From a virus (Duplodnaviria; Heunggongvirae; Uroviricota; Caudoviricetes): DNA of 35,498 nucleotides. The DNA lies in the IMG/VR virus record IMGVR_UViG_2740892487_000006. One strand, 5' to 3'. Below, in pieces: positions 21,592 through 24,990 of the stretch. The position numbers and the translations under genes are program-made. Within the stretch, counting starts at the first letter, position 1, and every line of letters starts with the position of its first letter. Under the pieces are notes generated by a model. It had not been told where the DNA came from and searched no databases. It was given only the letters and a program-made list of their open reading frames with translations.

Positions 21592-24500
21592 ATGGGTAAA
21601 GGAAGCAGTAAGGGGCATACCCCGCGCGAAGCGAAGGACAACCTGAAGTCCACGCAGTTGCTGAGTGTGATTGATGCCATCAGTGAAGGGCCGATTGAAG
21701 GTCCGGTGGATGGATTAAAAAGCGTGCTGCTGAACAGTACGCCGGTGCTGGACAGTGATGAGAATACCAACATCGCCGGTGTCACGGTGGTGTTCCGGGC
21801 TGGTGAGCAGGAGCAGACTCCGCCGGAGGGATTTGAATCCTCCGGCTCCGAGACGGTGTTGGGTACGGAAGTGAAATACGACACGCCGATCACCCGCGCC
21901 ATCACGTCGGCAAACATCGACCGACTGCGCTTTACCTTCGGTGTGCAGGCACTGGTGGAAACCACCTCAAAGGGGGACCGGAATCCGTCGGAAGTTCGCC
22001 TGCTGGTTCAGATACAGCGTAATGGTGGCTGGGTGACGGAAAAAGACATCACCATTAAGGGCAAAACCACCTCGCAGTATCTGGCCTCGGTGGTGGTGGA
22101 TAACCTGCCGCCGCGCCCGTTTAATATCCGGATGCGCAGAATGACGCCGGACAGCACCACAGACCAGCTGCAGAACAAAACGCTCTGGTCGTCATACACC
22201 GAAATCATCGATGTGAAACAGTGCTACCCGAACACGGCACTGTTCGGCGTGCAGGTGGACTCGGAGCAGTTCGGCAGCCAGCAGGTGAGCCGTAATTATC
22301 ATCTGCGCGGGCGTATTCTGCAGGTGCCGTCGAATTATAACCCGCAGACGCGGCAATACAGCGGTATCTGGGACGGAACGTTTAAACCGGCATACAGCAA
22401 CAACATGGCCTGGTGTATGTGGGATATGCTGACCCATCCGCGCTACGGCATGAGGAAACGTCTTGGTGCAGCGGATGTAGATAAATGGGCGCTGTATGTC
22501 ATCGGCCAGTACTGCGACCAGTCGGTGCCGGACGGCTTTGGCGGCACGGAGCCGCGCATCACCTGTAATGCGTACCTGACCACACAGCGCAAGGCGTGGG
22601 ATGTGCTCAGTGATTTCTGCTCGGCGATGCGCTGTATGCCGGTATGGAACGGGCAGACGCTGACGTTCGTGCAGGACCGACCATCAGATAAGGTGTGGAC
22701 CTATAACCGCAGTAATGTGGTGATGCCGGATGATGGCGCGCCGTTCCGCTACAGCTTCAGCGCCCTGAAGGACCGCCATAATGCCGTTGAGGTGAACTGG
22801 ATTGACCCGAACAACGGCTGGGAGACGGCGACAGAGCTTGTTGAAGATACGCAGGCCATTGCCCGTTACGGTCGTAACGTCACGAAGATGGATGCCTTTG
22901 GCTGTACCAGCCGGGGGCAGGCGCACCGCGCCGGGCTGTGGCTGATTAAAACGGAACTGCTGGAAACGCAGACCGTGGACTTCAGCGTGGGTGCGGAAGG
23001 GCTTCGCCATGTACCGGGGGATGTCATTGAAATCTGCGATGATGACTATGCGGGTATCAGCATCGGCGGGCGCGTGCTGGCGGTGAACAGCCAGACCCGG
23101 ACGCTGACGCTCGACCGTGAAATCACGCTGCCATCCTCCGGTACCACGCTGATAAGCCTGGTTGACGGAAGTGGCAATCCGGTCAGCGTGGAGGTCCAGT
23201 CCGTCACCGACGGCGTGAAGGTAAAAGTGAGCCGTGTTCCTGACGGCGTTGCCGGATACAGCGTGTGGGGGCTGAAGCTGCCGACGCTGCGCCAGCGCCT
23301 GTTCCGCTGCGTGAGTATCCGTGAGAACGATGACGGCACGTATGCCATCACCGCCGTGCAGCATGTACCGGAAAAAGAGGCCATCGTGGATAACGGGGCG
23401 CACTTTGACGGCGACCAGAGCGGCACGGTGAATGGTGTCACGCCGCCAGCAGTGCAGCATCTGACCGCCGAAGTCACTGCAGACAGCGGGGAATATCAGG
23501 TGCTGGCGCGATGGGACACGCCGAAGGTGGTGAAGGGCGTGAGCTTCCTGCTTCGCCTGACCGTGGCAGCGGATGACGGCAGTGAGCGGCTGGTCAGCAC
23601 GGCCCGGACGGCGGAAACCACATACCGCTTCACGCAACTGGCGCTGGGACGGTACACGCTGACAGTCCGGGCGGTAAATGCGTGGGGACAGCAGGGCGAT
23701 CCGGCGTCGGTATCGTTCAGGATTGCCGCACCGGTAGCACCGTCGCGGATTGAGCTGACGCCGGGCTATTTTCAGATAACTGCCACGCCGCATCTTGCGG
23801 TTTATGATCCGACGGTACAGTTTGAGTTCTGGTTCTCGGAAACGCGGATTACCGATATCAGGCAGGTTGAAACCACAGCCCGCTACCTTGGCGCGGGGCT
23901 GTACTGGATAGCCGCCAGTATCAATATCAAACCGGGCCATGATTATTACTTTTATATCCGCAGTGTGAACACCGTTGGCAAATCGGCATTCGTGGAGGCC
24001 GTCGGTCGGGCGAGCGATGATGCGGAAGGTTACCTGGATTTTTTCAAAGGCAAGATAACCGAATCCCATCTCGGTAAAGAGCTGCTGGAAAAAGTTGATC
24101 TGACGGAGGATAACGCCAGCAGACTGGATGAGTTTTCGAAAGAGTGGAAGGACGCTAACGATAAATGGAATGCGATGTGGGGCGTCAAAATTGAGCAGAC
24201 CAAAGACGGCAAACATTATGTCGCGGGTATTGGCCTCAGCATGGAGGACACGGAGGAAGGCAAGCTGAGCCAGTTTCTGGTTGCCGCTAACCGTATCGCG
24301 TTTATTGACCCGGCAAACGGGAATGAAACGCCGATGTTTGTGGCGCAGGGCAACCAGATATTCATGAATGACGTGTTCCTGAAACGCCTGACGGCTCCCA
24401 CCATTACCAGCGGTGGAAATCCGCCGGCATTTTCCCTGACACCAGACGGAAAGCTGACCGCTAAAAATGCGGATATCAGCGGTAATGTGAATGCAAATTC

Positions 24501-24990
24501 AGGGACGCTCAACAATGTCACGATTAATGAAAACTGTCAGATTAAGGGGAAACTGTCAGCCAATCAGATTGAAGGCGATATTGTCAAAACGGTCAGCAAG
24601 TCTTTCCCCCGCACGAACAGTTATGCCAGTGGCACCATCACGGTAAGAATCAGTGATGATCAGAAATTTGACCGGCAGGTCATGATACCGCCAGTGTTAT
24701 TCCGCGGTGGTAAGCATGAGAATTTCAACAGTAATAACCAACAGTCATACTGGTATTCAACCTGCCGGTTAAGAGTGACCCGCAATGGTCAGGAGATTTT
24801 TAATCAGTCCACGACGGATGCTCAGGGCGTATTTTCCTCAGTTATAGATATGCCTGCCGGACAGGGGACGCTGACACTGACATTCACCGTATCTTCATCA
24901 GGAGCGAATAACTGGACACCAACAACCAGTATCAGCGATCTGCTGGTTGTGGTGATGAAAAAATCCACAGCAGGTATCAGTATCAGCTGA
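21592..24990 (+). CDS. J: Central tail fibre / host-specificity protein gpJ, with a C-terminal receptor-binding region unlike lambda's
   Basis: 1132-aa intact ORF, lambda-like for roughly the first 980 residues; the last ~150 residues (...[45 protein letters not shown]...[13 protein letters not shown]) differ from recalled lambda J. Confidence 0.93.

Follow-up and report, generated by a model that had tools for sequence, protein, structure and literature searches.

A lambda-type gene J with an A8-type C-terminal receptor-binding domain in a prophage sequence

Gene J and its surroundings

The window, that is, the whole stretch of 35,498 nucleotides analyzed here (IMG/VR record IMGVR_UViG_2740892487_000006, Caudoviricetes), runs from cold-shock genes and a lysis cassette through Nu1 and a lambda-like head and tail gene cluster to J, lom, and stf. 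Two Rfam cspA thermoregulator leaders were detected, at 903-1295 (158.8 bits) and 3805-4191 (111.9 bits), each with a gene for a cold-shock protein of 70 to 71 aa, and the lysis cassette (1958-3587), composed of a P21-type holin, DUF1327, lysozyme, and an Rz-like (DUF2514) gene, lies between the two leaders. The tRNA scan was negative, and the Rfam scan gave no match near J. From 20000 to 28365 (8.4 kb), the window is the same as a prophage of Escherichia coli MLI104K1 that adjoins pinQ/ydfK/ydfJ, save for three 1-nt insertions, and the gene order L-K-I-J-lom-stf was established from the ORF map together with this otherwise identical annotated prophage. The features around J are as follows.

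21592..24990, plus strand: gene J, tip attachment protein (central tail fiber), 1132 aa plus stop, from the ORF list and translation
21592..24511, plus strand: lambda-type J body, comprising hub domains, FNIII/Ig domains, helical shaft, and most of the beta-prism fiber
24613..24987, plus strand: Ig-like receptor-binding domain (RBD) proper, Pfam PF12421 (Ig_GpJ_C), aa 1008-1132, E = 5e-36
25008..25037, plus strand: terminator-like hairpin and T-run directly 3' of J
25058..25657, plus strand: lom, Ail/Lom outer-membrane protein (Pfam Ail_Lom, E = 3e-120)

The protein encoded by J has exactly the length of its lambda counterpart, 1132 aa (lambda J, NC_001416 15505-18903), and is 89% identical to it overall (BLASTP). 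Over residues 1-964, 932 of the 964 positions are the same (96.7%), so that the body differs from that of lambda by 32 substitutions, and the nucleotide identity of the corresponding DNA (21592..24511) is ca. 95.5%. The Pfam families FNIII-A_GpJ, Phage-tail_3, Ig_J, Ig_J_second, Phage_Tail_Tip, and Ig_GpJ_C were all found in the window J with scores above the cutoff. At the DNA level, J is 100% identical to the gpJ gene of the MLI104K1 prophage (WP_016242134.1). By its domain architecture, its identity to lambda J, and its position among the tail genes, the window J is a lambda-type tip attachment protein.

The diverged C-terminal domain and its receptor

A first-pass annotation, made from the DNA letters, had described J as lambda-like for most of its length and as different in the last ca. 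150 residues (24500-24990), and both statements held. Over residues 975-1132, 71 of 163 alignment columns are identical to lambda (ca. 44%), and the contrast in identity between this part and residues 1-964 is extreme (Fisher's exact test, p = 8e-62). The DNA identity to lambda, measured per 100 nt, stays at 87 to 99% until 24491, falls to 68% in the next segment, and then to 44 to 55%. When a single change point was fitted to J against lambda by maximum likelihood, it fell at 24512, with a mismatch of 4.5% to the left and 47% to the right. The protein strings quoted in that annotation are present in the J translation and in the lambda comparison; for contrast with the window J, the C terminus of lambda J reads ...VIKKQALGISVV.

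A domain unrelated to that of lambda was ruled out by the Pfam match to Ig_GpJ_C. Since the C terminus still has this fold, the window RBD is a divergent allele within the Ig_GpJ_C fold. Maddamsetti et al. (2018; PMC6646904) gave the J "specificity region" as residues 960-1132 and reported that this region evolves independently, as a module, that positions 1012 and 1107 were critical for the laboratory shift of lambda to OmpF, and that natural J homologues group into clades according to correlated indels, located at 1012, 1048-1049, 1077-1078, and 1107. We scored LamB-type specificity by these genetically defined residues, 1012 and 1107 (PMC6646904), together with the positions of indels; the structural papers on J and LamB name the loops L1-L4, without residue lists in the text (PMC11101478, PMC12617516). 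Relative to lambda, the alignment of the RBD contains three indels: a deletion of 4 residues, in which lambda S1011-D1014 (S1012 included) are missing, an insertion of 5 to 6 residues near lambda 1048, and a deletion of 1 residue at lambda ca. 1104, adjacent to D1107, which is aligned to N. Thus, S1012, D1107, and the lambda loop lengths are not retained in the window J, and neither the retained residues nor the close identity over lambda 975-1132 that characterize a LamB-type J specificity region was found. By its indels, the window J can be placed as a member of one of the natural clades of Maddamsetti et al.

When the C-terminal 196 aa of J, and then the C-terminal 420 aa, were compared with the sequences in the PDB, A8 was the best match. 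Residues 966-1132 (24487..24987, plus strand) are identical at 167 of 167 positions to "A8 gpJ 713" (PDB 9wca/9wcb), and the only nearby difference is residue 965, N in the window J and S in A8, which falls within the lambda-derived part of A8. The DNA of "GpJ A8" in the supplement of PMC11338833, noisy from OCR, has the same codons at its 3' end as the window J. A8 gpJ has been solved both by itself and with OmpC (PDB 9wca, 9wcb): a search with K-12 OmpC found three "Outer membrane porin C" chains in 9wcb, so that this deposited structure contains exactly this RBD together with OmpC. A8 was made by Brödel et al. (2024, Nature; PMC11338833) by joining to lambda gpJ, at residue 964, the gpJ C terminus of a natural E. 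coli prophage. In that study, gpJ chimeras of this kind were screened on a lamB-deleted recipient and next tested on a lamB/ompC double deletion strain with 23 plasmid-borne OmpC variants. A8 delivered DNA into the double deletion strain only if ompC was supplied in trans, it reached 90% of the cells at an MOI of ca. 20 with MG1655 and EDL933 OmpC alike, and it was also effective on a Klebsiella pneumoniae ST258 strain (PMC11338833). The window J is like this chimera in having a lambda-type body and an identical RBD with, very probably, the same OmpC receptor, but A8 is an engineered fusion on the exact lambda body, whereas the window carries a natural full-length gene with its own body substitutions and N965.

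A natural phage with nearly the same domain is vB_EcoS_phi330 (PV189401), a Stx2a siphophage whose RBD is two residues off that of the window (TNS to TST, aa ca. 1008-1010). Of 54 Keio outer-membrane mutants, only the ompC mutant showed no lysis zone with this phage, and Plac-ompC restored plaquing on it (PMC12502783). Since the window RBD is 100% identical to that of A8, and not on grounds of family resemblance, the C terminus of the window J is in all probability an A8-type allele that binds the trimeric porin OmpC and not the maltoporin LamB, the OmpC dependence and LamB independence being those published for the identical RBD (A8) and for the 2-aa-different phi330 rather than for the full-length J of the window. 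The use of an outer-membrane receptor other than LamB, proposed in the first-pass annotation, is therefore supported by the OmpC dependence of the identical A8 domain in lamB-deleted cells and by the OmpC requirement of phi330.

The nearest distinct RBD clade is that of phage 21 (OL657228), with 81.6% amino acid identity over 158 aa and 84% over 199 aa, and its J shares the indel pattern of the window relative to lambda. The native receptor of phage 21 is LamB; OmpC or OmpF is used only after J mutations, and one J mutation adds OmpC (PMC11336670). Because phage 21 uses LamB at ca. 82 to 84% RBD identity, a receptor call by family resemblance alone was rejected, and the case illustrates that few residues can decide receptor choice in the J family. 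The same phage raises the possibility that the window RBD is a distant LamB-binding allele like its own, with an unchanged host range, and the fold family, which is that of lambda, agrees with such a reading. We consider it highly improbable given that the identical A8 sequence was selected on a lamB-deleted recipient and needs OmpC, that phi330 gave no plaques on an ompC knockout still having lamB, that a complex with OmpC has been deposited, and that of the two specificity residues of lambda, 1012 is deleted and 1107 is replaced. Alignment of the C terminus with J proteins of phages with known receptors, the check suggested in the first-pass annotation, gave complete identity to A8, two residues of difference from phi330, ca. 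82 to 84% identity to phage 21, and 46% to phage 434. Since the RBD of 434, the classical OmpC user (cited in PMC11101478), is so distant from that of the window, OmpC binding occurs in at least two distant RBD clades.

With respect to the events after adsorption, cryo-EM of lambda showed that the trimeric RBD reaches into LamB with four distal loops (L1-L4), that the RBD base widens on binding from 1.8 to 3 nm, and that the beta-prism fiber gains new hydrogen bonds at its base, with a twist that passes upward, flips the helical shaft, and opens the tail tip (PMC11101478). Lambda J (P03749; PDB 8iyk, 8xcj, 8xck) and the window J have the same length, the same domain architecture, an RBD of the same Ig-like family, and presumably the same trigger, but they differ in the receptor, LamB for lambda and almost certainly OmpC for the window, and their RBDs are ca. 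44% identical and three indels apart. Since the J body is 96.7% identical to that of lambda and the two RBDs share a fold family, docking on OmpC most likely sets off the same trigger. At the tip of the J trimer, the distal loops of the three RBDs would dock on the OmpC trimer from its extracellular side. With lambda J and LamB as the model, this docking would open the RBD base, and a twist would pass up the beta-prism and the helical shaft, leading to the opening of the tail tip and DNA ejection; we infer these signal transduction steps in the window J by homology.

Mosaic structure of J and origin of the cassette

To describe the exchanged part, two further features are needed.

24512..24548, plus strand: left junction zone, aa ca. 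974-986, from the change point at 24512 to the end of BLASTN similarity to lambda and 434 at 24548
24549..24951, plus strand: core of the exchanged receptor-binding cassette, ca. 400 nt, unalignable with lambda or 434 (BLASTN)

Megablast matches end at 24537 for lambda and at 24548 for other LamB-type phages. Measured per 200 nt, the identity of the window to lambda is 92 to 98% in the J body and 47 to 55% in the RBD. The comparison with phi330 gives the reverse pattern, with 42 to 90% in the body, which in this phage is of the Pankowvirus type, and 98 to 99% in the RBD, and the cassette core (24549..24951) is likewise 98 to 99% identical to this OmpC-dependent phage. Against 434 (OL657227), BLASTN identity is 93.8% until 24548 and 92.8% from 24952 on, through lom and into stf, so that the sole unalignable part is 24549-24951, with sharp edges on both sides; overall, the J body and lom of 434 are ca. 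93% identical to those of the window, while the RBD reaches only 46%. The similarity to lambda stops at 24548 and resumes at ca. 25530, inside lom (BLASTN). Accordingly, lom belongs to the 434 type, with 92.8% identity from 24952 on, and compared with lambda, most of it is diverged, until ca. 25530. Chlobot and PhiR70_1 share the last 491 nt with the window at 100% identity, although their J bodies align only in two pieces. Many Stx1a, Stx2a, and Stx2c long-tailed phages, as well as 2H10, Chlobot, YYZ-2008, and CP-1639, have RBDs that are 98 to 100% identical to that of the window.

Positive selection is known to concentrate in the specificity region, and in the laboratory, lambda switches receptor via few point mutations (PMC6646904), so that the RBD difference could also be thought of as gradual divergence by point mutation under diversifying selection within one lineage, with no module swap. 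This is scarcely tenable here. The mismatch rises abruptly at one change point, from 4.5% on its left to 47% on its right, and the RBD contains three indels; the same RBD, 98 to 100% identical, sits on very different bodies (phi330, Chlobot, and Stx phages), while the body in the window tracks lambda; and the block that is unalignable with 434 is sharp-edged on both sides. Judged by these sequence comparisons, the mosaic pattern shows that the A8-type cassette reached the lambda-like J body by recombination and not by gradual drift. The proposal of the first-pass annotation, a host-range module swap on a lambda tail, agrees with the body and RBD pattern seen against lambda, phi330, and 434. 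Homologous recombination in conserved flanks would have placed the allele on the lambda-like J body, with a left crossover at ca. 24512-24548 and a right crossover either in the last ca. 40 nt of J or in lom.

State of the prophage and prevalence of the allele

Downstream of lom, several observations concern the condition of the prophage. The three 1-nt insertions relative to MLI104K1, at 25027, 25705, and 26544, are all in homopolymer runs, and two of them are located in the T-tails of terminator-like hairpins, one after J and one after lom. These differences may be the result of slippage or of (long-read) sequencing errors. The third one affects stf (25721-28396), in which an additional A in the A-run at ca. 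26538-26544 causes a +1 frameshift and leaves two ORFs, 25717-26577 and 26117-28396, whereas the MLI104K1 gene is intact and otherwise identical. The frameshift echoes that of laboratory lambda PaPa, and a homopolymer sequencing error is also possible. An IS903-like element (28366-29450), whose terminal repeat GGCTTTGTTGAATAAATCAGAT starts at 28366 and whose DDE transposase is encoded on the minus strand (ORF 28422-29390), removes the 3' end of stf. Downstream of this element, neither tfa nor any other part of the lambda right arm is present, and genes of the CP4-island type follow (29812-34889): YagK/YfjJ, DUF932, an antirestriction gene (KlcA/ArdB-like), and a RadC-like JAB gene. Since CP4-type island genes stand in place of phage genes, the right end of the prophage has been replaced or rearranged. 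The prophage looks damaged, and because stf is frameshifted and IS truncated and the right arm is replaced, it may no longer produce phage.

These features give some weight to the view that J is an intact relic in a decaying prophage, where the allele confers no current host range, a view compatible with OmpC binding. In its favor are the +1 frameshift of stf near 26544, the IS903-like cut at 28366, and the downstream genes, which are of the CP4-island type and not those of the lambda b-region and int. We nevertheless regard it as rather unlikely, although clearly less so than the two alternatives discussed above. J and lom are intact, as is the entire head and tail cluster, and these genes are 96 to 100% identical to those of inducible phages and other prophages, lambda plaque formation dispenses with side fibers (PMC12617516), and all three 1-nt differences, being in homopolymers, may be sequencing errors; moreover, the window is without the immunity or integration region by which viability could be judged.

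The allele itself is widespread. In the phage collection, ca. 44 records carry the RBD at amino acid identities of at least 95%; by DNA, there are 44 records at 95% or more and a further 41 at 90 to 95%. Many of these are long-tailed converting phages for Stx1a, Stx2a, or Stx2c. A comparison of the 471-nt RBD segment with complete E. coli genomes gave 1,022 records at identities of at least 99% and 471 more at 95 to 99%, so that ca. 1,490 records contain copies at least 95% identical to the window allele. The equivalent lambda RBD segment (4434-4904 of the lambda locus L001) was found in only 98 of the 5,426 complete genomes of E. coli, where the window allele is thus by far the commoner of the two; the matches listed first for the lambda segment are laboratory strains, several of them DE3 lysogens. 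Whether the A8-type OmpC cassette, rather than the LamB type of lambda, is the prevailing specificity of E. coli lambda-tailed prophages, with textbook lambda being the atypical one, we consider an evenly balanced question. If so, the cassette would have passed between unrelated J bodies via the short conserved flanks at 24512-24548 and 24952-24990, sometimes together with lom.

The host-range module swap in the window is real, but it is common and already described, and the allele is an ordinary one. The modularity of the J specificity region has been known since 2018, the allele was used in engineered lambda particles in 2024 and tested genetically in a natural Stx phage in 2025, and its structure with OmpC has been deposited, so that biology gains nothing new from the window J. 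What the analysis provides is an assignment of the tail receptor from sequence alone, in all likelihood OmpC and not LamB. This assignment bears on predicting which strains the prophage could infect or transduce, and OmpC use explains the plating of such phages where LamB is repressed, for instance, in gut-adapted E. coli.
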